A stretch of DNA of 64,000 nt from a virus, in the IMG/VR virus record IMGVR_UViG_3300048922_000467, positions 22,454 through 86,453 of that record; one strand, written 5' to 3'. The notes below the pieces were generated by a model. The model was not told the DNA's origin and searched no databases. It saw only the letters and a program-made list of their open reading frames with translations. A program made the position numbers and the translations under genes. Positions 1,648 to 57,789 of this stretch are shown here, in pieces; positions within the stretch are counted from its first letter, which is position 1, and the number at the start of each line of letters is the position of its first letter.

Positions 1648-2067
1648 ATGCTCACTCAACTCCCACATCTGTCGCTCAGTCAAATCCCGCTCCCCCTGCA
1701 GCTCTGCAAGCTCAAGGCCGGCTTTCCATCACCAGCCCTGGACTACGTCGAAGACAGACTGACGCTGAATGACGTGGTTAAGCTCGATCCCAGGTACTGC
1801 TATCTATGCCAAATTGATGGCGATTCCATGATCGACTACGGCATCCAGCCCGGAGATGTAGCAGTGATCAGCCGCAACGAGCCAGCCAGGCCTGGGAAGA
1901 TTGTGGTCATCAGCATCGACGGTCAGAACACGCTTAAGCTGCTGTCTGAAGATGACCAGGGCCCGGTGCTCCTCGCCGGCAACAGCGCTTACAAGCCGAT
2001 TCGGCCAGGTGACGGTGAGGAGTGGGTATTTCATGGGGTGCTGATCGCATGCACGCGCCTGTTCTGA
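1648..2067 (+). CDS. umuD: UmuD/RulA-type S24 peptidase, DNA Pol V accessory subunit
   Basis: AGFPSPA cleavage motif, GDSM catalytic Ser, TLK catalytic Lys. Confidence 0.92.
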   Translation: MLTQLPHLSLSQIPLPLQLCKLKAGFPSPALDYVEDRLTLNDVVKLDPRYCYLCQIDGDSMIDYGIQPGDVAVISRNEPARPGKIVVISIDGQNTLKLLSEDDQGPVLLAGNSAYKPIRPGDGEEWVFHGVLIACTRLF

Positions 2068-3359
2068 AGCCAGAATGGCGTCTGAGCGCAAATCAAAAGC
2101 GTGTGTACGCCTTGGTCGACTGCAATTCATTCTACGCAAGCTGTGAGCGGCACCCCCTTTGGCGCCCTGATCTTGCTGGGCTGCCGATAGTGGTGCTGTC
2201 GAACAACGATGGTTGCGTGATTGCTCGCTCCAAGGAAGCTAAGACCTTGGGGTACAAGATGGGTGACCCGTACTTCAAGATCCGCGACCAACTCGCCAAC
2301 CAGGGCGTCCACGTATTCAGTTCGAACTACACGCTGTATGACGATCTCAGTAGCCGCGTGATGCTCACCCTGGCCGACTTCGCGAGCGAGCTGGAGGTGT
2401 ATTCGATTGACGAAATGTTCCTCGATCTGACGGGCATGCGGGGCTATCAGGTGATGGCCGAAGAGATGAAGGAGCGCGTGTTTCGATGGACTGGAATTCC
2501 CGTTGGCGTTGGGATCTCTACGACCAAGACCCTGGCGAAGCTCTCAAACTGGGCTGCGAAAAACTGGAGAGGCCTTCCTGGTGTTGCAGTAGTACTTGAC
2601 GATCAGCGGCACGAGCTGTTGCTCAAGCGTGCACCAATTGGGGAGGTTTGGGGGATCGGGCGTCGCTGGGCTGAGAAGCTGGAAGCCAAGGGCATCGTCA
2701 CAGCCTGGCACTTGGCATGCGCGGACAACGAGGCTGTCGGTAGAGAGTTCAACGTCGTACTACAGCGGACTGCTCTAGAGCTCCGAGGCATCCCTTGCAA
2801 TGATCTGGAGCTCCAGGCTCCGAAGAAAAAGCAAATCATCAGCTCACGTGCGTTTGGAAGCCGGCAACAGGGGTGGAAACCAATTGAGCAGTCGATTGCC
2901 AGCTACGTTGCCCGCGCAGCTGAGAAACTCAGAGCTCAGGGGTCGGTTTGTCGGAAGATTGATGTTGGTCTCATTGTGAGGAAAGCCACGTCGGAGAGCT
3001 TCAGTGATGCGTACTCTTCAGCGACAGCCAGACTTCAGCAGCACACCGACGACACTCTCACGCTTCAAGGGGCGGCTGTTTCTTTGGCTAAGATAATCTT
3101 CGACGACAATGCAGTTTATGCAAAGTCCTCCGTGGCATTGAGCGAGATCTGCCAGCCAGAAGACCTCACTACGGACATGTTCGCTGCTGCCAGCTCACAA
3201 AGCCCCAGAGCTAAGGTTCTCGATCAGATCAATGCCAAATTTGGCAAAGGCGCTCTGCGCTCAGCTACGACCATTGGCGACATGCAGTGGAGCATGCAAC
3301 GTGGGCACCTGAGCCCTTACTACACTACGCGCCTGTCCGACCTGCCGAAGCTTCGGTAA
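2049..3359 (+). CDS. umuC: UmuC/RulB Y-family DNA polymerase V
   Basis: ALVDCNSFYASCE, VVLSNNDGC, YSIDE, C-terminal LSPYYTT; start taken at ATG 2049 overlapping umuD. Confidence 0.95.
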   Translation: MHAPVLKPEWRLSANQKRVYALVDCNSFYASCERHPLWRPDLAGLPIVVLSNNDGCVIARSKEAKTLGYKMGDPYFKIRDQLANQGVHVFSSNYTLYDDLSSRVMLTLADFASELEVYSIDEMFLDLTGMRGYQVMAEEMKERVFRWTGIPVGVGISTTKTLAKLSNWAAKNWRGLPGVAVVLDDQRHELLLKRAPIGEVWGIGRRWAEKLEAKGIVTAWHLACADNEAVGREFNVVLQRTALELRGIPCNDLELQAPKKKQIISSRAFGSRQQGWKPIEQSIASYVARAAEKLRAQGSVCRKIDVGLIVRKATSESFSDAYSSATARLQQHTDDTLTLQGAAVSLAKIIFDDNAVYAKSSVALSEICQPEDLTTDMFAAASSQSPRAKVLDQINAKFGKGALRSATTIGDMQWSMQRGHLSPYYTTRLSDLPKLR

Positions 3360-5338: not shown

Positions 5339-5614
5339 CTAGGCGGTTTTCAGGCGCTCCAGGCGTTCCTGGGCAATCCGGGCAAGGCAGGCATGAAACT
5401 CAGCCAGGCAAGCAGCGGCGCACTGCTGTTGCCATTTTGGGAGCTGCTTGAGATCAGGGCGATCAGCGGGTTTTCGAGTGTCTTGCTGAGCAAGTCTGAA
5501 GCACTCGTCTACACAAAAATCCTCGACCTTGGGAGCAACCTGAAAAAGGAAGTATGTGCCGGACGAATACTCAATTGCGGCCTTGGCGTCTGCGTAAATT
5601 TTGGTGATGTTCAT
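5339..5614 (-). CDS. Hypothetical protein (91 aa, MNITKIYADAK...)
   Basis: ATG 5614 preceded by a clear copy of the element leader GCATAACAATAAGAGAG. Confidence 0.6.
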   Translation of the reverse strand: MNITKIYADAKAAIEYSSGTYFLFQVAPKVEDFCVDECFRLAQQDTRKPADRPDLKQLPKWQQQCAAACLAEFHACLARIAQERLERLKTA

Positions 5615-5684
5615 GAAGCGCTCTCTTATTGTTATGCCCTTGCATACTGTCACTATGCAGGTGGAGCAAAAGAGAGCGCAACAC

Positions 5685-6383
5685 TTAATATGAGCCTTCT
5701 GCGCGCCAATTGAGGAACCGACACACACCCTCTATATCTGGATAAATAGACTTTGAGGTAACACCGCAGCGCTCCAGGGTCATCAGGAAATCGACCTTGT
5801 CCTTACCCGCAATCACATACTCCTTCAGATACTTTTTGACTTCAGGGTTTCGTTCCAGGGGGACGAACTTCCCAGACTTTTCAGAAAACCTGTGGGCAGT
5901 AAAGTAGCCAGACTGCGCGATAATCCTATCGTTGCTAAGATTTGGGTTAATCACCCTGGTCTTTCGTTGGCTGAAGGGACTACCTTTGAGTGATGGCAGC
6001 ATTAGCGAATGAGCTTCTAGTGTGTAGACATAGCAGTCATCCGTTCCCCTGGAGCTACAAGCAAAGTAGATTGCAGCCAGGGCATTCGAAGTCCAGTCCA
6101 ACAGCCTGGTTTTCATTCCAAAATGCTGAGCAAGAACGAGCATATCCCAATCATTGTCAATGTCGACATAGCTGGGAATCATCGTCAGCCCGTGCCGCCT
6201 CAGATCAGCCAACATCGTTTTTTCGACTGCGGTTGTGTTGTTGGTGGGATCTTTCCGTGCGATACCAGGAAGCAGGTTGCCGCGTTTTGACTGCCCGCGA
6301 AACAGCACAGTCCCGCCCACCAGGTCATAACCGCTTAGACGATTGAGGAAATCCGGAACGTCCTTGATCGGAATTGAAGTCAT
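5685..6383 (-). CDS. FRG-domain protein
   Basis: LFRGQ, AQHFGMKTRLLDWT, RIIAQSGYF motifs. Confidence 0.9.
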   Translation of the reverse strand: MTSIPIKDVPDFLNRLSGYDLVGGTVLFRGQSKRGNLLPGIARKDPTNNTTAVEKTMLADLRRHGLTMIPSYVDIDNDWDMLVLAQHFGMKTRLLDWTSNALAAIYFACSSRGTDDCYVYTLEAHSLMLPSLKGSPFSQRKTRVINPNLSNDRIIAQSGYFTAHRFSEKSGKFVPLERNPEVKKYLKEYVIAGKDKVDFLMTLERCGVTSKSIYPDIEGVCRFLNWRAEGSY

Positions 6384-6385
6384 GA

Positions 6386-6766
6386 TTACGCCTGCAGCCA
6401 GCTTTCGACTTCCTGAGCCCCATGCTCCAATTTCCAGGCCTTCAAGGTGCTGTGATTACCGCCTTTCGTTTCGACGACTTCGTTTGTGTGCGGGTTCACA
6501 TAGCGTTTAACTGCACGAGGCGCACGCGGCCCCTTACGCCCATCAACCTTGCCACCCGCTGCAACCACAGAAGCCCCAGCAGCCTTGGGATCGAGGATGG
6601 CAATAACGTTGCGCAGAGACATGCCGTACTCCGCCAGCAGCTTGCGCAGTTTGTCTTCAAATTCCAGCTCCCTCTGCAGGGCTTCGCTGCCTTTGAGAGC
6701 TTCCAGGGCCTGAAGCTGTTCGGCGATCTGGCGCTCTAGGGCTCTGTATTCTGCGGCTTTTGACAT
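6386..6766 (-). CDS. MvaT/MvaU-family (H-NS-like) xenogeneic silencer
   Basis: N-terminal coiled coil ELEFEDKLRKLLAEYG; C-terminal YVNPHTNEVVETKGGNHSTLKAWK...VESW. Confidence 0.93.
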   Translation of the reverse strand: MSKAAEYRALERQIAEQLQALEALKGSEALQRELEFEDKLRKLLAEYGMSLRNVIAILDPKAAGASVVAAGGKVDGRKGPRAPRAVKRYVNPHTNEVVETKGGNHSTLKAWKLEHGAQEVESWLQA

Positions 6767-6885
6767 TAGTGGTGCTCCGTTTTAGTAAATGCCATGAAAT
6801 ATACATAGGTTGTAGCCGCTGTCAAATTCAAGCCATGACTACATATTGGACGAGCCGAGAATAGATTCATTCGGGCATTGCCTTA

Positions 6886-6901
6886 CTGTATGGGCATACA
6901 G
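6886..6901 (+). promoter_or_regulatory. LexA (SOS) box
   Basis: TACTGTATGGGCATACAGTA, a near-perfect palindrome with CTG-N10-CAG. Confidence 0.85.
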
Positions 6902-6945
6902 TATATTTAAGTCAGTAGCCAATAAAAACAACAAGAGAAAAAGAC

Positions 6946-7140
6946 ATGCAAGGCACGATCATTATCAAGAATGGCTTATTCAACAACGCCTTCGAAATTC
7001 GAGACTGCGAGATAACCCTTAGCGATACAGCGAGCGTCAGCGAAGATTGCGATTCGAACAAGAAATATGCTGAATTGACATACCGAGGCGACTCATTTCT
7101 GCATAAGTGTGTTGAGGATGTGAAAGCGCGCTTCCAGTAG
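6946..7140 (+). CDS. Small hypothetical protein (64 aa), probably SOS-induced
   Basis: SOS box and A-rich leader upstream; hairpin terminator at ~7157-7180. Confidence 0.6.
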   Translation: MQGTIIIKNGLFNNAFEIRDCEITLSDTASVSEDCDSNKKYAELTYRGDSFLHKCVEDVKARFQ

Positions 7141-7221
7141 CCATCAGATCACAGAGAGGCTCACCCGCGAGCCTTTTGTTTTCAAATCCACCTGCAGCAC
7201 ATAATAATAAGAGAGAAGACA

Positions 7222-7668
7222 GTGATCTACAGCATTCACAAGAACGCCAGCCTATTTCATATAGTCGTTAAAGGCCGAACGATGCTTCTGATGGAGCTTT
7301 TTATGGGCTCAGACCACCAACACAAACTTGGCAATGGTTATCGATTCATGGTTGCTGCTAAGCGACTTTTGGGAGATGGCTGCCTGAAAACGATAGCCAG
7401 CAAAAGGGCTGAGGGCGGTGCTCTAGTGCCCTACAAGGATACGTATAAGTACGTGGGCTCAGGAGTCTATGAGTTTTACAACGAAGTTAATGAAGAGCTC
7501 GTCAGGGCCTTTTTTGACGATAGGATTGGCATGGATGACCTGCGTTGCATCAAAGGGGACTACTTAGCCGCCCACATCGTTAAGCAAATTGACAGCCAAA
7601 TGCCTGGCTACAGGGAAAAGTACGCCATGCGAATGTCGAGAGGAGCCTTGGGCTGGGTTTTCGAATGA
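7222..7668 (+). CDS. Hypothetical protein (148 aa)
   Basis: GTG start after leader TGCAGCACATAATAATAAGAGAGA; followed by a terminator. Confidence 0.75.
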   Translation: MIYSIHKNASLFHIVVKGRTMLLMELFMGSDHQHKLGNGYRFMVAAKRLLGDGCLKTIASKRAEGGALVPYKDTYKYVGSGVYEFYNEVNEELVRAFFDDRIGMDDLRCIKGDYLAAHIVKQIDSQMPGYREKYAMRMSRGALGWVFE

Positions 7669-15049: not shown

Positions 15050-15071
15050 GGCGGGACTGACTTTATTATTG

Positions 15072-15830
15072 TTATTGTACAGTCATTGTAGCACTTGCTG
15101 ATTGTTGTTTGTGCGCAAAAAAGCCTGGATGGCTATTCATTCCGTCTGCGCTGAGTTGTTCTTTCAGAGACGGCAGGTTACGCCCGAAGTTTTGAACAAG
15201 CCATTTGTAACGATCGGACTTCCGGAAAGCGGCTTCTTGGCCCTCATAGCAATAGTCGAAGCCTTGCTTTTTGGCCCAGTCCTCCATCGTCATTGAAGTG
15301 CCATCAACACGAGGCTTAACCCATGGGCATTTGATATTGCGATTTGAGAAGATGAAGACGATGTGAATGTGGTTCTGCTTCGCAGCACAGATGTATTTTC
15401 TAGCAGTCTCAAGATCCGCGATAACCCCTTTGCCCTCGTAGACGATTCGATCATTTAGGGGGTCGATCCAGTCTGGCTGGTAGCTATGCTCGACATAGTA
15501 AGGAATCTTGTAAGCGGAAGGCTCGTAATCGAAGCCCTTCATGCCGCCGAAGTGCCCCATTCTGAATTCACTCCAGCTCCGATATGGGCGCGGGTAGCGA
15601 GGCAGGTCTGGAGTCTTGATGATTGACTCACCATCCTCAAACTTGCGCTGGTATGCCTGACGATTGTAGTCATTCCAAGGGAAGGCTTGCTCGACTTCAT
15701 AACAAGCATCAGCACATAGCTTGAGGAGCTCGTTGTCGACATTTAGATAGCCATGTGGCTTCTGGAAGTGTTTGGCGTATGAATCTGATTTAAAGATGTC
15801 AGCAATCTTCTGCGGATCTAGACCTTTCAC
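15072..15830 (-). CDS. T7 endonuclease I-like PD-(D/E)XK nuclease
   Basis: YEP...IPY...HSYQPDW...IVYEGKG...IVFIF...WAKKQGF pattern. Confidence 0.7.
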   Translation of the reverse strand: MKGLDPQKIADIFKSDSYAKHFQKPHGYLNVDNELLKLCADACYEVEQAFPWNDYNRQAYQRKFEDGESIIKTPDLPRYPRPYRSWSEFRMGHFGGMKGFDYEPSAYKIPYYVEHSYQPDWIDPLNDRIVYEGKGVIADLETARKYICAAKQNHIHIVFIFSNRNIKCPWVKPRVDGTSMTMEDWAKKQGFDYCYEGQEAAFRKSDRYKWLVQNFGRNLPSLKEQLSADGMNSHPGFFAHKQQSASATMTVQ

Positions 15831-15992
15831 AATGCACTCTCTTATTCTTATTATGTGCTGCTATGATCTTATTATCGTCAATGAGCAAAACATGACGCAA
15901 CACCTGGTCGCGCCTTTTATTCAATTATCTTAATTCTTTCTTATGCCGGACAACTTGCTGTGAGTTAGGGGCATCCTTGCCTCCGCAATCCC

Positions 15993-18182: not shown

Positions 18183-18199
18183 TTCAATTTCTCTCTGTA

Positions 18200-18663
18200 T
18201 TGTTGTCGTGCTCTCTTGCACATTTATAGTGTTATCCATGAGCAAAAGACCATGCAACACCTTTTGGGGTTGACACTTGGGTATGTTGAGGTATGCAAGT
18301 AACGCTGGGTTGATTGGGGGCTATTGAGGTAACGCCCGGTTGATTTCGGTTGCGCGAGAATGCTGTTCGAGAGCAGGGCGTAACGCAGCGTTGTGATTTT
18401 AGTTTTTCTTAACCAAGAGACTTGACCTGCCTACTGGCTCGGGTTTTCATAAACTCATCACAAAGCATCTGCACCCTCAACCGCCCCTTTCTTTTATAAA
18501 AGGAGAGACCCGTTGCAGGCGAGGTAGTTTTCTTTGGTTAAGAGAAACGGAAGTAGATTTCCTTTTGTATACCTCGACTCCAAAAATTGACAAGCGAAAA
18601 AGGTGTTGCGCAGGCTTTTACTCATATTCAACACTATAAATGTGCAAGAGAGCACGACAACAA
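18200..18663. repeat. Inverted repeat (34 bp perfect, ~66 bp imperfect) flanking a probable origin
   Basis: 18200-18233 is the exact reverse complement of 18630-18663; GTAACGCnnGGTTGATT repeats at 18299 and 18329, partial at 18380. Confidence 0.9.
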
Positions 18664-18680
18664 GAAGAGAGAGCATCACA

Positions 18681-19961
18681 ATGAAATTCGGCATTCAGTA
18701 CTCAGCAGCTACTCGACAAGTGAAGAACTGTCAGGCGGCAAGTTTCAGAGAGTTTTACGATAACGTCTTGCAAGCCGAGAGCGTTGTCGAAGAGAAAAGC
18801 GGTCGCACTTTTACGCCCGCGATCTTCAGACATCCTGAGCGATTGATCGAACACACGATGGAGCTATCGATGATCGTGTTGGACGTAGATCAGAAGCCCC
18901 ATGACGACATTATCACCCTGGAAGAGATGGAAGACGCCCTGATCGACATGAACTTCGAGCACTGCATTTATACATCACACAGCAACACTGTCGACTGCCC
19001 GCGCTTCCGCGTTGTAATGCCCCTAGACACCCCAATACAACCCGAGGCATTGCCGGCAGTAGCAGCTGCGGTTATCGAATGCCTAGACGGATTCTTCGAT
19101 GGCCGACTGATCAAGGTTCTCGATCGCTGCTGGCAAGAAGTATCCCGCTGCTACTTCACTTTTATGTCACACCCCGATCGTCGAAGCGCAGCCATGAGCT
19201 TTTATAACCCCGGCAAGCCGCTGTGCTCCCTGGATCTAAAACTCGCTCAAAGCAGCTATGGCCTCGACGTCGAATCCTCTACCCCCGGCAAGCCCCGCAA
19301 GCCAGGCACCGCTGTAGGCGCAGCAGGCCGTAGCTTCGAGCTCAATCGCATCCTGGGTGGCCTGTTCCGCTCAGCCTGCGAAGATCAGATTGTCCAAAAA
19401 ATCCTGGAGGTCGACCAGGAACAGAATCCAGGCAGTGAATACTTCCGGGATCAAAGCTACGCCCGTCACAAACCGCGCCCTGGCGAAACCAAAGACGCAG
19501 CAGCCCTGCGCGCCTGCAAAGCCTGGGTCAGATCCCACTTGAACTGGCTGCGCCGAAAAGCCAAGGGCATCGACACCACGGTCGTGAACCGAAAGGCTCA
19601 GTCCAAAGAGCCAATGCCTACCCACGAAGCCATGATCCGCTTGAAAGACTTTAAGCCCGGCAAGACCAAGGCAGGCGGCGAAACAGCCCTGGCCGAATTC
19701 GAAATCGTGTCTGGTGAGCACGCTGGCCGTCACGTCTGGCACCGGTTTTACGGCCAGGGTAACCACCCAACAGCGATCAAGATCTCCAACGAAATGATCG
19801 AAAAATTCAAGACCGCCGCCAGTCTTCCAACAGCCAGCTTCGACGATGCTTTGAAAGCAAAAGGCGTGATCGTCCACGCCCGGATCAAGCTAAAGGCAGG
19901 GACTGGGGGATTCCCTGATCAAAACGAAATCGGGACGTTCTTCACTCAACCTGTGTCGTGA
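18681..19961 (+). CDS. Primase-polymerase-like protein with C-terminal DUF669-like (SSB-like) domain
   Basis: IVLDVD, IYTSHS, RFRVVMPL; C-terminal KTKAGG...FEIVSGEHAGRHVW...QNEI. Confidence 0.72.
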   Translation: MKFGIQYSAATRQVKNCQAASFREFYDNVLQAESVVEEKSGRTFTPAIFRHPERLIEHTMELSMIVLDVDQKPHDDIITLEEMEDALIDMNFEHCIYTSHSNTVDCPRFRVVMPLDTPIQPEALPAVAAAVIECLDGFFDGRLIKVLDRCWQEVSRCYFTFMSHPDRRSAAMSFYNPGKPLCSLDLKLAQSSYGLDVESSTPGKPRKPGTAVGAAGRSFELNRILGGLFRSACEDQIVQKILEVDQEQNPGSEYFRDQSYARHKPRPGETKDAAALRACKAWVRSHLNWLRRKAKGIDTTVVNRKAQSKEPMPTHEAMIRLKDFKPGKTKAGGETALAEFEIVSGEHAGRHVWHRFYGQGNHPTAIKISNEMIEKFKTAASLPTASFDDALKAKGVIVHARIKLKAGTGGFPDQNEIGTFFTQPVS

Positions 19962-19988
19962 TATGGTCGGCCAGCCTTTGGTGCCATC

Positions 19989-20729
19989 ATGTGCTGGCCC
20001 CCATCTCACGAGACTTTGGAAATGGATATTCGCTTTTTCTTTGAGCAGCGCCTGGAGTTCATCAAGCAGCTTTATATCAATGGCTCAGCGCCCTTCGAAG
20101 AGCGCATGAGCAAGATCGTGAATGGGGAAGAGCCATTCATTCCACCGTACAGTGAAGATGGAGAGCCACCATTTCAGCTCGAATGGGAGGAAGCTGATGC
20201 ATCGATACAAGTGCTGGGCAGCTCTTGTCTTTCGATGATATCCGCATCACTACACATCTACCTGGTGGCTTGGCAGAACCGTCTAGGGCCTGCTCCAGAT
20301 TGCACAAAGTCTGCATTCAAGAATGGATGGCCAGCAGGGTATCAGGCTTTCTACGAGTCACACGGTTCAGCTAAATTCGACACTGGCCCATTCGATTACT
20401 CACTTGTTTCAGAAATTGTCTTGGCCCGAAACAGCATTCAGCATGACGAATCCCTGACATCCAACACCTTCCGATACAGAGACAGCGACCTCCCGAAGCT
20501 ACCGAGCCCTTTCTTCGTCAGTGACCAAGATAAAGAGCTAGCGAAGCAGATCGATGATGGTGAGAGAAGCTGGCTCTACCCGCCGCGCATTCACATCACC
20601 AAGGAAAAATTCCTACACATGATCTCTGAAATTTCGAATTTGGTTGAGTGGTTGGAAAAGCAAGGCGAGCAAATCCAATATCGGCAGTATCTAGAGCGTA
20701 AGAAACTGCGTGAGAGCAATCAGAGCTAG
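19989..20729 (+). CDS. Hypothetical protein with HEPN-like RX4H motif
   Basis: EIVLARNSIQH; probable start ATG 20022. Confidence 0.75.
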   Translation: MCWPPSHETLEMDIRFFFEQRLEFIKQLYINGSAPFEERMSKIVNGEEPFIPPYSEDGEPPFQLEWEEADASIQVLGSSCLSMISASLHIYLVAWQNRLGPAPDCTKSAFKNGWPAGYQAFYESHGSAKFDTGPFDYSLVSEIVLARNSIQHDESLTSNTFRYRDSDLPKLPSPFFVSDQDKELAKQIDDGERSWLYPPRIHITKEKFLHMISEISNLVEWLEKQGEQIQYRQYLERKKLRESNQS

Positions 20730-20946
20730 ATCATCAAGAAACTCAAGAGCCTCTACCCAGGGGCTTTTTCACGCCCTCACGGATTGACAGCCAACTACTT
20801 TAAGTTATACAGCAGATCACACTATTGCTTTCAAAATGTCGCTTTGACAACCAACTAATCTTAGGTATACGCCTTGACAATCTGTTGTGCGCACAATGAC
20901 TCAATGCCATAATCTAACCATAACAACAAGAAAAAGGAACTCGCCA

Positions 20947-21237
20947 ATGAATTATTTCACAGAACATCTTTCGAACATGTCTATAGAGCGGAAACTTGCA
21001 CGGATTAAGAGCTATCTGAACTTCCTGCAGCTCCCAGGCATCGACCAGACATTCCTGGATTTGCTATTAATGTCCAGAGAGCTTCATCAGTCTTCGATGT
21101 GCCGTGGAGACACAAGTATCATTGACGTTGCGGACTCAATAGATGAGTTTGTACGCAAGACGCTAGATGAAGCTTGCGAACACATTGACCGACCATACCA
21201 CGCAAAGACTTATGAGAACGAATCTACTGGCATGTAA
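20947..21237 (+). CDS. Hypothetical protein (96 aa)
   Basis: ATG 20947 after CATAACAACAAGAAAAAGGA leader and tandem sigma70-like promoters. Confidence 0.6.
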   Translation: MNYFTEHLSNMSIERKLARIKSYLNFLQLPGIDQTFLDLLLMSRELHQSSMCRGDTSIIDVADSIDEFVRKTLDEACEHIDRPYHAKTYENESTGM

Positions 21238-21321
21238 ACCCACCAAACTTTGCACTCAAAAAACCCAGCAGCTTTTGATTTATCCCCACATACAGCACTG
21301 TGGCAGTGGTAATATATAGAT

Positions 21322-21420
21322 GTAGGCAGTTCCTCTCTCTTACTGCCTATGCCTTTATTGTTGTGTGCTGCACCCAATCCCTGGCCGGGCCTCTCTCTCT
21401 CTCCTGGCCGGGGCTTTTTT
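21322..21420 (+). ncRNA. Candidate ~100-nt antisense sRNA complementary to the element's gene leaders
   Basis: Extended -10 TGGTAATAT at 21307-21315; hairpin 21322-21350 with TCCTCTCTCTT loop; seed TTATTGTTGTGTGCTGCA; terminator hairpin 21379-21413 followed by T6. Confidence 0.7.
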
Positions 21421-21645
21421 ATGTTGCCAATTTGTCAATTTCGTTACCATTCGTCAGGAAAGCAATGTGAGAAAGTTGGGGCAGTGTCAGACAACAGCCG
21501 GAATTGCTGGGGTTGCTGGGAGTTGTTGTCTGATACTGGGTGTTAGTACACTTAGTTGATTATTTCCCGACGGTTTACAGGGATATTGATTGCTCTTAGC
21601 CTTGTTCATGTCGGTTGACGACACAACAGAAAAGAGAGCGAAACG

Positions 21646-21867
21646 ATGGGGATGTACGAGCGGATTCCGAATGACCTTATTACTTCAAGCCAGGCGGCTG
21701 AGGTGCTGGGGGTGAGCATCAACACATTGAAGGTCTGGCGCTCCAGAAACCCCAACTTGGGTTACTACAGGGGTCACAACCGCGAGATTCGTTACTCGCT
21801 GAAAGAATGCCAGCAGTACTACCGCCGTTCGTTCCAGCGCGTTGTGCCTGGGTCTGGCGCGCAATGA
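21646..21867 (+). CDS. MerR-like/excisionase-type HTH protein
   Basis: LITSSQAAEVLGVSINTLKVWRS...IRYSL. Confidence 0.85.
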   Translation: MGMYERIPNDLITSSQAAEVLGVSINTLKVWRSRNPNLGYYRGHNREIRYSLKECQQYYRRSFQRVVPGSGAQ

Positions 21868-21936
21868 AGACGCCCTCGGCTCGACAATTTATTATCAAAA
21901 ATGATAGTTTTCTGTGGAGTCAGTCGAGGGTGAGTT

Positions 21937-22470
21937 ATGAATCGAAAGCTGCTGCTGGAATCGTGCAGAACGCTGGCAGCTGCCGGGGTGTGGTGCATCC
22001 CTGAATCGACTCTGATCGGGTTTGCGGGGTATCCAGACAAAGCTTACTTCCGCGTTGCCATGGCCAGGCATTTTAGAGCCGGCATCATCGAGAAAATCGC
22101 CCCCAAGCTTTACGCCAATCCCTTCCTGCGCCCACCTGCGGCTGGGCTGTTTCGCTTAACCAATTTTCTAAGGCCATTGGACAGCTTTTATCTGAGCTGT
22201 GAATCGGTGCTCAGTGAGCATGGTTGGATCAGCCAGCTGCCTTTCTGCCTGACCTTCGTTACTACTGGCCGAAGCTATCGATACAGCACGTTGCTGGGTG
22301 ACATCGACTTCGTGCACACCGAAGAAGACCCCGCAACCTGGTTAGGCCATCTGCAGCGAAATGAAGACCGTCAGGTATGGGAGGCGTCCCCTGAGAGAGC
22401 CCTGGCCGACCTGCAGCGCTACAAGCGCAACCTTGATCTCGTCCTGCCCGAATCCGAGCGCCCGCAATAG
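21937..22470 (+). CDS. AbiEi-family antitoxin-like protein (orphan)
   Basis: YLSCESVLSEHGWISQ, VTTGRS, ASPERALAD. Confidence 0.8.
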   Translation: MNRKLLLESCRTLAAAGVWCIPESTLIGFAGYPDKAYFRVAMARHFRAGIIEKIAPKLYANPFLRPPAAGLFRLTNFLRPLDSFYLSCESVLSEHGWISQLPFCLTFVTTGRSYRYSTLLGDIDFVHTEEDPATWLGHLQRNEDRQVWEASPERALADLQRYKRNLDLVLPESERPQ

Positions 22471-22524
22471 CCTCTCGCGGCGCCATGGCTTATTATCCCC
22501 GATATTTAGATCCGGGGCCTCGAC

Positions 22525-23508
22525 ATGCCAAAGCCATCTGCCATTGAGCTCAAGCGCAACCAGCTTGCCCGACTCAAAGCCAATCTCGACGAGTGCGGCT
22601 TTCGCTTGGCCGAGCCATTGGCAGCAGAAGACCCGCACACAGCTATTTTGCGCGCAAACGCGCTGTCCCAGCGCCTTAGCCTGGGGATGCTCATCTCAAG
22701 GGGTGGTGAGACGAAAGCCTCTCTCTCTAAGCAGCTTGCGCAGCTTCCCGCAGTGCATGACGTGTTCGCGTTTCAGAAAGCCCCGGAAGTCCATCTGCGC
22801 GTTGGAAAGATCGCAAAGTCGGATGAACAAGCCTACGTCGAAATGGTTGCTGAATTCACTCGCGAGCTTGAGGAGCTGAATGGCTTTGAGGTCGAGCAGG
22901 GAGAGGAGATATCAACACCTGAGTCGATATCCCAAAGGATCGAGTCAGCGCCAAAAATTGGCAGGCCATCAAAGACCCCTCTCGAAAATCTAGATCGGGG
23001 CTTGGCAGAAAACTACGGCATAGCCCGCCTTGCTTTAGCGAAAGCCATGATCAACGAAGAGAATCCGAGATCGATGGGCCGCCCTGCACGGACAGTGGCT
23101 CAGGTTGAGGCGGACTACGCCCAGCGCAAACAGGATCTGGACACCTCGATCACTGACCTAGAGTCCAAGCTCAAGGGTGTGGAAATCCATGATCGGGCCA
23201 GCAAGATATACCGAGACGTTCTGGCTCAATTCAAACGGCTAGTGAAGGAGCTGGGAGGCGTAGACCAGATCGAAGCCAGGTCAGAAGTCACGCGCCTGGA
23301 AGGCCATCTGAAATTCCTGAAGCAGGATCGAAAGCGCTACATCGAACTCGGCGAGCCCGACTTGCCCTTGGAGCACCATAACTCCCCACGCCACCACCTG
23401 TTGTCAGCAAAAGCAGAGCTGGCAGCAGTTCGCGACGTATACGACCAGCTGACGCTTCCGAGAGAGATCAAGCGCCTGAAAGACATCGAGGCCAGGAAAG
23501 CCAAGTAG
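22525..23508 (+). CDS. Hypothetical coiled-coil protein with two GRP motifs
   Basis: 327-aa ORF containing KIGRPSK and MGRPAR. Confidence 0.75.
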   Translation: MPKPSAIELKRNQLARLKANLDECGFRLAEPLAAEDPHTAILRANALSQRLSLGMLISRGGETKASLSKQLAQLPAVHDVFAFQKAPEVHLRVGKIAKSDEQAYVEMVAEFTRELEELNGFEVEQGEEISTPESISQRIESAPKIGRPSKTPLENLDRGLAENYGIARLALAKAMINEENPRSMGRPARTVAQVEADYAQRKQDLDTSITDLESKLKGVEIHDRASKIYRDVLAQFKRLVKELGGVDQIEARSEVTRLEGHLKFLKQDRKRYIELGEPDLPLEHHNSPRHHLLSAKAELAAVRDVYDQLTLPREIKRLKDIEARKAK

Positions 23509-23940
23509 CCCCTCCAGCTCCAGCCCCCAGTCAGCTTTGTTCCCGAACACCTCGCTGGACGGCTCAAGCCGGGGGCAGCGTTGGTCGCGGCTAGAGCCAG
23601 ATCGACAGAATGTACAAGATGATCAGCAGGTTGAACCCGTTGCGACACAGATTTTTAATCGTAGTCATTTCTCGCCCCTGCCGACATATTATGGCAGTTA
23701 TTAACTCACAGGTTCAGATCTAAATCAAGCTCAATGCCCCAGTTTTGCTGGGCATTTCACGTATGTCTCTCGTACCTACCTGCATTAGTACACTAAGTTT
23801 ACTTTCAGTATATTGCCAATTTGTCAATTGTTTTCTCTGATAATTCCGACGAACGGCATTGCCAAGATCTCGATTTGCCAACATATTGATGTCAGACGGG
23901 CTGCGCAGTGTCGCCCGATTTGAAGACTGGGCAGAGTGAG

Positions 23941-24231
23941 ATGAATGCGTGTGTGAGGGTCGAAGACATTGAGGTAGCCATTGACAGGGCAGCTGCAGAG
24001 CGCGAGCGTGCGAGGCTGGCTGAGTCGCTGGGCTATTGGACAGAGAGCCAGGTTGCGATGCTGGCGGGCGTTAAAAAGTCGACGCTAGAGTCCTGGAGGA
24101 AGCGAGCGAAAGGGCCCGACTCTATTCTCTTCGGAAACGAGCCCCTTTACTCGATTGCAGACGTTAAAGGCTATTTCGACAGCCTTGCTCAAGCCAAATC
24201 AGACCGTAGTCACATCCGAGCCGCGTTGTGA
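23941..24231 (+). CDS. HTH protein, probable excisionase/recombination directionality factor
   Basis: ESQVAMLAGVKKSTLESWRKRAKGP; convergent with and overlapping the integrase 3' end. Confidence 0.75.
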   Translation: MNACVRVEDIEVAIDRAAAERERARLAESLGYWTESQVAMLAGVKKSTLESWRKRAKGPDSILFGNEPLYSIADVKGYFDSLAQAKSDRSHIRAAL

Positions 24232-25290
24232 ACGATCCTCGCTTGCACGGCGAAGAGCTTTCCTCCGCTCCTGCAGGTGGACTGACTCGGGATTGATGTG
24301 TGTATATCGACGCAGAGTCTTCCAATCTTTATGGCCAGTGAAAAGCGCTACGGATTCGATATCAAGCTCGCGGGCAAACAGATCTGTCGTTGCTGTGTGC
24401 CTCAGGTCATGAAAACGCAGATCCTCGATACCAAGGGCTTGGCAAGCCCTGGTAAACGAAGCACTCACTGAACGATGGTTGTAAGGGAAGAGCTGACCTC
24501 GCCTCCTGCTTCCCATGGCTTTGAGAATCGGCTCCACAAAGTCATCAAGAATCGGAACAACGCTGTGGTTGCCCTTCTTGTCAGTGGGGTGCTTTCTATC
24601 TCTTACCACCATCACGCGACGTTCTAAGTCGACATCCTCAATACTCAGCGCACAGATTTCTTCCTGGCGCAGCGAAGTTAGAGTTGCGAACTCCATGACA
24701 GCAATCATATCAATCTGAGCGCGTTGCATTTTCCTGTAGTGTCCAGCCAGCTTCTCGATTTCCTCTGGTGAAGCGACTCTCGTTCGCTCTGTCGATCGAA
24801 CCCTCAATCCCCTCTGTTTCAATGACCTTTTAACATCAACAGTGATATCCGGGTTGACGTTCAACTTGCGAACATAGCGAGCCCAACTTAAGACCGTCCG
24901 GAGATAGGCTAGGTCGATGCTGATTGTCACTCCGCCAGCGCCATCCTTTACGCGTCTGTCGACGAAATCACGTACGATGGCCTCTGACAGAGATCTCAGC
25001 TTCACATGACCAATCTTGCGCTTGAATGACTTCAGCACAGCGGCCTTGTTCTTGCCGAAAGGCTTCACTCCACCAACATCTTCTTCGTACCGGACAATCA
25101 GATCCTCCAGATTTGCGTCCTTGTGTGGATCTATGTACTCGCCCGTGCTGGAGAGCTTGAGCTGCTGCTCGATCTCTTTCGCCCACTTCCTGGCGGTTTT
25201 TTCGAGATCGAAGGTCTGTGCCCTGTAGAATCCTCCAATCCTGACCTGAGCGCGGGTCTTGCCCGAAGGGAGTCGTGTAAATGTCGCCAT
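24199..25290 (-). CDS. int: Tyrosine integrase (dusA-associated type)
   Basis: SLRQEEI, FHDLRH, TGHKDWKTLRRY; clearly homologous to 62858..64000; start MATFTRLPSG at 25290. Confidence 0.93.
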   Translation of the reverse strand: MATFTRLPSGKTRAQVRIGGFYRAQTFDLEKTARKWAKEIEQQLKLSSTGEYIDPHKDANLEDLIVRYEEDVGGVKPFGKNKAAVLKSFKRKIGHVKLRSLSEAIVRDFVDRRVKDGAGGVTISIDLAYLRTVLSWARYVRKLNVNPDITVDVKRSLKQRGLRVRSTERTRVASPEEIEKLAGHYRKMQRAQIDMIAVMEFATLTSLRQEEICALSIEDVDLERRVMVVRDRKHPTDKKGNHSVVPILDDFVEPILKAMGSRRRGQLFPYNHRSVSASFTRACQALGIEDLRFHDLRHTATTDLFARELDIESVALFTGHKDWKTLRRYTHINPESVHLQERRKALRRASEDRSQRGSDVTTV

Positions 25291-25293
25291 GCC

Positions 25294-25379
25294 CGTGTGC
25301 ACCCCGTGTGCAAAATCGTCTAGACATATTATGGACACTATTTAGACCGTTCAAGCCCTTCGTGTGCACCCCGTGTGCA
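25294..25379 (+). repeat. 19-bp direct repeat, probable integrase arm-binding sites
   Basis: CGTGTGCACCCCGTGTGCA at 25294-25312 and 25361-25379, between int and the att junction. Confidence 0.7.
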
Positions 25380-57092: not shown

Positions 57093-57789
57093 CATAGAAG
57101 AGATAAGGGCAGCCTTCACGGCGCGCCTAAAAAAAGCACTCGCCGCCAATGACATACAGTCGTGGGGAGCCGGCGCGCGCCTGGCGCAAATGGCCCAGGT
57201 CACCCCAAAAGCAGCCAGCAAGTGGTTGAACGGGGAATCCCTACCAGGAAGCGCGAAAATGCAGGCTTTGGCCGCATCACTCAAAGTGCGTCTCGAGTGG
57301 CTGGAATATGGAAAGGGCGGTATGACCGAGGACACTCCTCCCTTCGACGCCAACGTGGAGCCGATTGCGGGTCCTGTCAGATATTACGAGTACCCTGAAA
57401 TCAGCTGGGTCCAGGCTGGGATGCCCATGGAAGCTATCGAAACGTCTAACATTGCCGGGTGCGAGTTTCACCCCTCTGATGCTTGGGCTGGTCCACAAGG
57501 GTTCTGGCTCAAGGTGCGCGGGCCTTCCATGACGTCCCCCAACGGCATGTCCTTTTCTGAGGGGATGGTCATTCTGGTTGCCCCCGGATTTGACGTTGAG
57601 CATGGCCAGTTCGTTGTGGCCAAGCTGATCGATTCAAACGAAGCCACGTTTAAGCAGTTCATTTGGGATTCCGGCAAGGCCTACCTCAAGCCTCTTAATC
57701 CTGCGTTCCCCACTGTGGAAGTCGACAAGACCTGGCTGATCGTTGGTCGGGTGATCGACGCCAAATGGCCTCGTTCAGTTCTGAGCTAA
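57085..57789 (+). CDS. CI-like repressor (HTH + S24 peptidase)
   Basis: VTPKAASKWLNGES, SWVQAG, GPSM, ATFK. Confidence 0.93.
   Translation: MVHIEEIRAAFTARLKKALAANDIQSWGAGARLAQMAQVTPKAASKWLNGESLPGSAKMQALAASLKVRLEWLEYGKGGMTEDTPPFDANVEPIAGPVRYYEYPEISWVQAGMPMEAIETSNIAGCEFHPSDAWAGPQGFWLKVRGPSMTSPNGMSFSEGMVILVAPGFDVEHGQFVVAKLIDSNEATFKQFIWDSGKAYLKPLNPAFPTVEVDKTWLIVGRVIDAKWPRSVLS

Follow-up and report, generated by a model that had tools for sequence, protein, structure and literature searches.

A candidate small RNA complementary to a family of operon leaders in a Pseudomonas prophage

What is the role of a structured RNA, encoded between the replication operon and a small helix-turn-helix (HTH) gene of a Pseudomonas prophage, whose exposed segments mirror the translation start regions of the prophage's own operons? 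The locus lies in the window analyzed here, 64,000 nucleotides of viral DNA (bases 22454-86453 of the 86,453-base IMG/VR provirus record IMGVR_UViG_3300048922_000467), to which all positions refer unless record coordinates are stated. It carries a candidate small RNA (sRNA) of ~95 nt at 21322-21420 on the (+) strand, which an initial annotation took for a master antisense regulator silencing its prophage through a shared leader. We find a conserved two-hairpin structure that folds only as the (+) transcript, with a single-stranded linker complementary, in a non-random and conserved manner, to a family of leaders heading about eight operons. We propose tentatively, at somewhat less than an even chance, that it is an undescribed trans-acting anti-leader sRNA, a translational repressor with a logic resembling that of the c4 and CI RNAs.

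A conserved two-hairpin RNA on the plus strand

The unit including its promoter-like box occupies 21307-21420, and its parts all lie where the initial annotation had placed them. An extended -10 box TGGTAATAT (21307-21315, (+) strand) suggests a start near 21322. Hairpin 1 pairs 21322-21330 with 21342-21350 in a 9-bp stem and exposes an 11-nt loop, UCCUCUCUCUU (21331-21341), the complement of the AAGAGAG box of the leaders described below. It is followed by a single-stranded G/U-rich linker (21351-21378; core seed UUAUUGUUGUGUGCUGCA at 21355-21372), which is an exact mirror of the leader-family consensus, and by an intrinsic terminator (21379-21420) with a GC-rich stem of 11-13 bp (arms 21379-21389/21403-21413), a 13-nt CU-repeat loop (21390-21402) and a U6 tract (21415-21420). 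RNAfold reproduces the two-hairpin structure at -36.2 kcal/mol.

The intergenic block around it (21240-21650, 411 bp) is matched at 77-93% identity in four IMG/VR proviruses, in P. putida GM4FR (contig NZ_MKZO01000015.1, within 99923-119819) and a second Pseudomonas species genome, in a fifth provirus that is present also as a metagenome contig (L048/L119), and in two other metagenome contigs, both short (L100 and L110). The resulting set of ten loci holds nine distinct RNA sequences from a narrow lineage of complete siphovirus-like Pseudomonas prophages. The loop of hairpin 1 is invariant in the homologues, an invariance that is partly preselected because three of the nine sequences were found through a pattern containing this loop; the pattern occurs in 10 viral and at least 118 metagenome stretches, among which eight loci (L042, L043, L044, L047, L048, L100, L110 and L119) align to the region. 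Within the linker, UUGUU and CUGC are invariant, and nowhere in the 420-bp block is variation greater than in their flanks. The core (UUGUU...CUGC) and the overall complementarity to the leaders are kept while the flanks drift.

The structure for the alignment (A5) was written by hand and pairing was counted per cell, with the 3' partners slid by 1-3 columns as a control. Over the nine distinct homologues 200 of 207 stem cells pair (96.6%; hairpin 1, 94.4%; terminator, 98.3%) versus 37-52% with slid partners, and of the seven unpaired cells five belong to the loop-closing pair and two to the terminator base. Four pairs in hairpin 1 and eight in the terminator show no variation; 11 of the 23 pairs vary, and pairing is kept in nine of these through transitions to wobble plus two series, U-A > U-G > C-G in hairpin 1 (columns 4-30) and G-C > G-U > A-U in the terminator (columns 66-92). 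Four further stem pairs of hairpin 1, and in part also the loop-closing pair, shift only to wobble. By our own count from the pairing table, G:U occupies 43 paired cells, and about 76% of cells would pair on the (-) strand. Since these 43 cells would be A.C mismatches on the (-) strand, they fit the (+) fold only and indicate that the structure is selected in the (+) transcript, the strand given by the initial annotation; the argument is drawn from which way the one-sided changes go and not from classical covariation. A (-) strand RNA was considered and rejected, because the G:U cells mismatch there, no ORF follows AAGAGAGAGG on that strand and no T-tract follows the stem. A 65-aa reading frame from the ATG at 21349 was rejected as well: the ATG is lost in six of the nine homologues, and indels of 1, 2 and 4 nt in linker and loop exclude coding.

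The support for a promoter of its own is circumstantial and comes from sequence prediction. CAGTGGTAATAT is unvaried in all ten homologous loci, the preceding 20 nt vary, and insertions of 8 and 10 nt lie still farther upstream in two loci, a pattern that fits an extended -10 promoter without a -35 element; the lack of a -35 is also why a promoter scan passes over the box. A box of the form GGTAATAT-N3-4-GATGTARGCA occurs once more in the record, before a 77-aa (+) ORF in the tail region, and the leader of that ORF belongs to the same leader family. The region concerned (L023:11003-11215, record coordinates) is a divergent promoter region within the tail module: leftward it has a TATAAT and the leader CACATAATAATAAGAAGAA; rightward it has GGTAATAT-TGAA-GATGTAAGCAA, a leader with AAGAGAGAG and the 77-aa ORF, the box resembling the promoter and 5' end of the sRNA.

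At the 3' end, a GC-rich stem directly adjoined by a U-tract is present on the transcribed strand (U5 in one homologue). A consensus terminator scan misses 21379-21420 because it limits the loop to 8 nt and the loop here has 13. No other terminator was found between the stop of the upstream ORF (21237) and 21379, so transcripts reading through from the primase operon have to stop at 21420 as well. This fact supports a reading in which the element acts only in cis: it would terminate or insulate the rightward replication operon (primase, phrog_28203 gene and variable ORF) and might in addition serve as attenuator before the HTH and excisionase-side genes, and its leader likeness would be the remnant of a promoter-leader cassette partly duplicated in inverted orientation, without function in trans. 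We regard this as possible but rather improbable. It would account for the conservation of the whole intergenic block beyond the RNA, for the free re-use of promoter-leader cassettes in this phage (the inverted copies at helicase and primase; the duplicated GGTAATAT box) and for the failure to find a strong sigma-70 promoter for the gene at 21646, and it is at ease with a linker that shows neither covariation with its targets nor cognate specificity. A terminator alone, however, needs neither an invariant -10 box, nor an invariant 11-nt loop on an upstream hairpin, nor a conserved linker core. Moreover, divergent linkers keep their complementarity far beyond random variants, and one of them (G003) extends it, and by our reading the likeness to the leaders is limited to the two functional boxes, with unlike flanks.

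The RNA is not a genome-wide repeat. Among 401 Pseudomonas species genomes searched at the DNA level, 10 matches reached E<=0.01; only two of them (G001 and G224) are full-length, the other eight being pieces of 20-34 nt. A covariance model (R1) gave three matches in 151 genomes, of which only G001 is real (108 bits). The other two, G055 (33 bits) and G148 (31 bits), were rejected as homologues since they look like ordinary terminators, the match in G148 overlapping the end of a 426-aa ORF. No match came from the phage collection, at either the DNA or the protein level, or from the E. coli genomes. Exact copies of the 18-mer seed in two unrelated viral contigs (L006 and L007) were taken as chance, and P. 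fluorescens PfAR1 (L009) holds a protein 64% identical to a neighboring one in another context, with no homologue of the RNA. No Rfam family, C4 included, matched the 64-kb window at gathering scores, consistent with the view of the initial annotation that the RNA lies outside described families. At E values up to 10 the segment 21000-21800 (801 nt) returned only ErsA and mir-30; the ErsA match (Pseudomon-1, RF01719) reaches 19.5 bits (E 0.3) against a 50-bit threshold and aligns on the terminator only.

A leader family and its match to linker and loops

Most genes of the prophage carry AAnAAnAA directly before the start codon, often without a Shine-Dalgarno sequence (e.g. ...aagaagaataacaaATG). 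The record has 96 overlapping matches to this motif, and most of those in the prophage lie on the coding strand 7-27 nt before an ORF start; the neighboring 38 kb has few such start-site motifs. AAnAAnAA is the Pseudomonas consensus for Hfq/Crc targets, and its overlap with the start region leads to translational repression, as described in PMC5113210. The leaders show this arrangement in their sequence; translation of the phage may be linked to catabolite repression in the host, or A-rich enhancers may be at work.

Within this phage-wide layer lies a narrower family, GCAC-AAYAAYAA-GAGAG, with the form (GCAG)CAC-A-YAAYAAKAAGAGAG and the start codon 6-9 nt further on, so that the shared leader postulated in the initial annotation is real. 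It heads about eight operons: the ORF at 7222, the endonuclease/packaging operon, helicase, primase, the ORF at 5614, scaffold, and two divergent units of the tail region, whose leaders lie outside the window at record positions ~11027 and ~11197. Two of these leaders, that of 7222 included, belong to small cargo genes. AAGAGAG occurs in 14 copies in the prophage versus two in the other 38.6 kb; six copies stand 6-9 nt before an ORF start, and helicase has AGAGAGA in that position. Four family leaders come just after TATAAT or TATAAA and one after GGTAATAT, and judged by these -10-type boxes they look like 5' ends of primary transcripts.

The strongest match is the leader of the 148-aa ORF at 7222-7668, where the 18 bp with two G:U of the initial annotation lie within a 19-bp helix with three G:U (7193-7211, (+) strand; all helix counts allow G:U). 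The linker match ends 11 nt before the start, with AAGAGAGA (7209-7216) directly after it. In the endonuclease leader (15837-15862, (-) strand; gene 15072-15830, the first of the packaging operon) the claimed 14 bp were found at 15848-15861 with two G:U; AAGAGAG lies 6 nt before the GTG, and the leader is conserved in four relatives. The 5614 leader GCATAACAATAAGAGAG (5621-5637, (-) strand; 91-aa ORF; AAGAGAG 6 nt before the ATG) and the scaffold leader ACATAACGATAAGAAAA (354-370, (-) strand; after TATAAT) were credited with 12 bp and give 13 bp each, at 5625-5637 and 358-370. The helicase leader (18183-18221, (-) strand) follows a TATAAA and reads AAGAGAG - GCACGACAACAA - AGAGAGA. The primase leader (18641-18680, (+) strand), its near-identical inverted copy, reads AAGAGAG - GCACGACAACAA - GAAGAGAGAG - ATG 18681, with AAGAGAGAG at 18665-18673. 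The antiparallel order of loop, then seed, noted earlier against the leaders stands, and for helicase and primase the match has three colinear parts: AAGAGAG with the terminator loop, GCACGACAACAA with the linker (one bulge) and (G)AAGAGAGAG with loop 1. The segments 18183-18229 (-) and 18633-18680 (+) as a whole are near-identical inverted promoter-leader cassettes (ACACTATAAATGTGCAAGAGAGCACGACAACAA...), each with two AGAGAG boxes.

The complementarity was scored against chance by cofolding with 60-nt windows of the whole record on both strands in 15-nt steps (11,505 windows without the RNA's own antisense), the score being the cofold energy minus the two self-folds, so that the sRNA structure must open. 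The 7222 leader ranks first of the 11,505 at -23.9 kcal/mol; the two tail-region leaders rank 15 and 28, endonuclease 19, helicase 83, 5614 112, primase 132 and scaffold 214. Portal (621), RuvC (687), 6946 (1151) and 1468 (1610), which the initial annotation had counted among the targets, are at background level, although the 12 bp claimed for RuvC do occur (15061-15072). The 18-mer TGCAGCACAYAAYAAKAA has three copies in the window versus 0.27 expected, a number not reached in any of 100 shuffles, the pattern having been derived from these same three copies (7193 (+), 15845 (-) and the seed mirror at 21355 (-)). When the linker was shuffled with its composition kept, none of 200 shuffles reached the real mean of -14.85 kcal/mol over eight leaders (shuffled, -7.74 +/- 1.84). 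These eight leaders, used also in the genome and variant tests, were chosen because they match. A less circular test took leaders defined by an AAGAGAG/AGAGAGA box a few nt before the start, with the linker unused: all six rank 132 or better, and the 21646 leader, which has the box as well, ranks 290, with energies from -6.8 to -13 kcal/mol. Plain duplex energy does not set the 7222 leader apart, since numerous GC-rich sites do as well or better, and the G/U-rich seed yields many G:U-filled helices of 12-15 bp; by a rough reading, some fifteen helices of 12-13 bp with at most three G:U lie at non-leader positions among the matches listed.

The complementarity is kept in related phages. When the sRNA of each of five genomes was scored on that genome's leaders against 300 random windows, 26 of 31 distinct sRNA-leader pairs came within the lowest 5% (28 of the 33 rows tabulated, two being duplicates because the helicase and primase rows are one locus in G004 and G224). 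Natural linkers that diverge by 5-7 changes keep -14 to -20 kcal/mol, and equally changed random variants give about -9; 0, 1 and 0 of 40 random variants match the natural linker and none of 5000 resamplings reaches the natural mean, every variant being scored on the leaders of this window. In G003, by our reading, the linker has an altered 5' flank that forms 16 bp with the 5614-type leader of that phage, into the AAGAG box. The 7222 and endonuclease leaders are almost invariant among relatives. The 7222 leader is kept in G224, G005 and G003, and the gene behind it differs among relatives (148, 109, 113 and 74 aa).

The leader motif also admits a reading in which proteins are its users, the leaders serving as Hfq/Crc targets, as oriented DNA operators of a phage repressor or as AT-rich nucleation sites of an MvaT-like protein, and the copy inside the RNA gene being another such site or a coincidence; we consider this unlikely. 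Oriented operators of such a kind are known as the 'stoperators' of mycobacteriophage L5. The presence of AAnAAnAA before most prophage starts, often without Shine-Dalgarno, would suit it, as would the position of the motif just downstream of a -10 box in four leaders, which is typical of operators, the MvaT-like gene at 6386-6766, and the Hfq/Crc repression through AAnAAnAA described in PMC5113210. It leaves unexplained a structured (+) RNA that presents the exact mirror of the leader, single-stranded and in the right order, and the copy within the RNA gene, if viewed as a DNA site, is less conserved than any of the others. It is, besides, compatible with the sRNA model, Hfq on A-rich leaders being the usual partner of sRNA pairing.

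The ranking of leaders bears equally on a host-directed function, in which the linker would act on A-rich starts of host mRNAs (the Hfq/Crc regulon) or the CU loops on host Shine-Dalgarno sequences, altering host physiology in the lysogen, with the matches to phage leaders a side effect of their A-rich style. We think this very improbable. Many known prophage sRNAs do target host genes; a review (PMC12197685) treats c4 and sar and tabulates phage sRNAs. The linker's invariant UUGUU and the CCUCU loops are generic complements of A-rich and purine-rich starts. On the other side, the phage's own GCAC-containing leaders provide the top sites of the record, and its generic A-rich leaders (portal, RuvC, 1468 and 6946) stay at background.

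Repression, immunity and known regulatory RNAs

On the anti-leader reading that we prefer, the sRNA would most likely be transcribed from its own extended -10 promoter, possibly also being cut from read-through of the primase operon, and would end at the strong (+) intrinsic terminator. It has two hairpins with invariant CU-rich loops and an exposed G/U-rich linker between them; in the leaders of about eight operons, the AAYAAYAA tract is the counterpart of the linker and the AAGAGAG ribosome-binding box that of loop 1. Through G:U wobble one linker could read both the C and the U variants of AAYAAY, and pairing just upstream of and into the ribosome-binding box would lower translation. In the predicted duplexes, pairing stops 10-12 nt short of the start codon and extends into the AAGAGAG box, where it would block the 30S subunit, which favors a trans-acting translational repressor. 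Hfq may help the pairing: a terminator hairpin, a 3' oligo-U tail and an accessible seed, features of Hfq-dependent sRNAs, are all predicted here. The top predicted target is a variable cargo gene behind a LexA box and not a core lytic gene, a point against the control of replication, packaging and head genes inferred in the initial annotation.

Several results weigh against this reading. The covariation score is not above that of column shuffles (200 of 500 reach it), since nearly every change is a wobble on one side, with a single pair changed on both. In a crude, ORF-based set of 103 start regions, the 58 of the element show no better pairing than the 45 from the remainder of the record, 38 kb of neighboring DNA (Mann-Whitney p=0.41); a master silencer of many genes is thus overstated, and what stands of that claim is the set of about eight operon-first leaders. 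To the selection of the eight leaders noted above must be added that they are paralogous copies, so that eight targets are not eight independent observations, and that the random-variant null used all substitution types, which favors the transition-rich natural variants. The cofold score has no power to capture kissing between loops and leaders. The linker core carries single substitutions in four of the nine sequences, each by our reading an internal mismatch to GCAGCACAUAAU, and together with the nearly invariant leaders these mean that there is no clean covariation of seed and target; the co-conservation required by the initial annotation is borne out in that complementarity is kept in five related phages, but not in the sense that leaders covary with changes in the seed. 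In a matrix of six sRNAs by five leader sets no cognate preference appears: the cognate RNA is not the best in four of five genomes, and the G003 RNA is best on every leader set, so that the cognate ranks first only in G003 and there is no sign of heteroimmune specificities. Lastly, eight sequencing runs from five studies match 18600-23500, none recorded as RNA, and they give no evidence either way; the four matching entries inspected are contigs of uncertain kind, covered in part by relatives, and are uninformative on start, end, strand and level.

A stronger form of the proposal, close to that of the initial annotation, holds that the sRNA is the immunity repressor of the phage, silencing the operons of a complete temperate phage that has no recognizable CI-type protein. 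We consider this decidedly unlikely from the sequence evidence. The two CU loops and the wobble-rich linker would clamp a signature of two or three boxes (AGAGAG - GCAC AAYAAYAA - GAGAG) at the 5' ends of all operon-first messages, the sRNA alone would confer superinfection immunity, and an SOS-induced transcript that includes the best site (7193-7211) could antagonize it. The claimed lack of a CI repressor holds for the models used (HTH_3 and Peptidase_S24), by which the first element has only a UmuD-like protein without a CI-type match and a CI-type repressor is found only in the second element (~57178-57756); the first element does, however, hold other HTH proteins (21646 and 23908) and an MvaT-like silencer. 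The 252-aa repressor itself (~57178-57756, (+) strand; HTH_3 + Peptidase_S24) marks a separate prophage-like element in the right part of the record.

The nearest functional parallel is c4 of P1/P7 (immI), an RNA made in the lysogen in which an exposed loop and single-stranded segments pair with ribosome-binding regions and block translation, as summarized in PMC12197685. Like c4, the candidate is a small structured phage RNA whose exposed segments are complementary to ribosome-binding regions of the phage (19 bp for the linker; loop 1 versus AAGAGAG(AG)), with short boxes repeated in the genome. The P4 CI and N15 CA RNAs are related to c4 and belong to the Rfam family C4. Whereas c4 is processed from the leader of the single operon it controls, the sRNA here is encoded 14 kb away from the site it fits best, has counterparts in about eight separate operon leaders, has only a predicted regulatory function and matches no Rfam model. 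It stands upstream of the HTH gene at 21646, whose leader pairs weakly, and its best sites are 3-21 kb away. The sar RNA of P22 is cis-antisense and overlaps its target. Unlike sar, the candidate is encoded in trans with many candidate sites; like sar, whose partner is the start region of a gene of accessory or antirepressor type (table in PMC12197685), it is a short phage RNA that would address the start region of an accessory gene. Its leaders resemble the targets of Hfq/Crc-CrcZ/CrcY control in carrying AAnAAnAA over start regions (PMC5113210), but CrcZ carries the A-rich motif and titrates Hfq, whereas the sRNA carries the complement and would bind mRNAs. The RNAs RNAIII, LhrC, RoxS and the 'cuckoo' RNA CcsR have several hairpins with conserved C/U-rich anti-Shine-Dalgarno loops. 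These are chromosomal regulators of other bacteria without homology to the sRNA, whose loops, unlike theirs, fit a phage-specific AAGAGAG box beside a long linker match.

RNA-based control of lysogeny is otherwise known from few phages (P1/P7, P4, N15 and P22), where it acts on one operon. If the proposal is true, a single small RNA would govern the replication, packaging, head and tail operons together, i.e. the whole phage program, and prophage silencing could be tied to host carbon status, as Hfq/Crc already reads A-rich Pseudomonas leaders. RNA, boxes and natural variants have all been defined, and P. putida GM4FR provides at least one lysogen in culture. Even without a role in trans, phage-wide AAnAAnAA leaders without Shine-Dalgarno would be useful for understanding translation in Pseudomonas phages.

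Setting of the RNA gene in the prophage

The first element is a complete siphovirus-like prophage of ~48 kb (record 1-47800; window 1-25400), whose relatives are Pseudomonas proviruses and genomes including P. putida GM4FR. It is not a tail-less satellite, because the 22 kb of the record left of the window encode tape-measure, major tail, tail assembly and tail proteins. PHROG and Pfam scans of the genes around the sRNA place an integrase at 24199-25338 (-), an excisionase-like ORF at 23908 (+), the 73-aa HTH_17 protein at 21646-21867, a variable 96-aa ORF at 20947-21237 and the phrog_28203 gene at 19989-20729. The primase (start 18681, (+) strand) diverges from the helicase (start 18182, (-) strand), beyond which the endonuclease, a RuvC-like resolvase, the small and large terminase and the portal all lie on the (-) strand.

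The slot between the phrog_28203 gene and the RNA gene (20730-21240; likewise in L002, L003 and L005) holds a different ORF in each relative (96, 153, 110, and 201 plus 95 aa), and the conserved block begins at the stop codon of the slot ORF. Downstream, the 225 bp between terminator and HTH gene (21421-21645) are as conserved as the RNA and contain CAATTTG/CAATTTC repeats as well as a 14-bp inverted repeat (21482-21495/21525-21538). By our reading of the alignment the changes in this repeat among relatives are non-compensatory; it was therefore rejected as an RNA hairpin and resembles a DNA site, perhaps an operator or origin, more than a hairpin.

Upstream of the 7222 ORF, a LexA-type box TACTGTATGGGCATACAGTA (6885-6904) is followed by a 64-aa ORF (6946-7140), a terminator (7149-7180) and the conserved 7222 leader, and the region from 6885-7221 onward is a predicted SOS-linked cargo slot. 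The 7222 protein belongs to no Pfam or PHROG family, and its Atlas scores are 0.79 or less. The MvaT-like xenogeneic silencer gene (6386-6766; C-terminal DNA-binding domain, E 1.5e-21) adjoins a gene for an FRG-domain protein, the two together spanning 5685-6766 of the window on the (-) strand. At 1648-3359 (+), the 139-aa UmuD-like Peptidase_S24 protein is followed by an overlapping 445-aa ORF, the pair being possibly umuDC-type cargo within the prophage.

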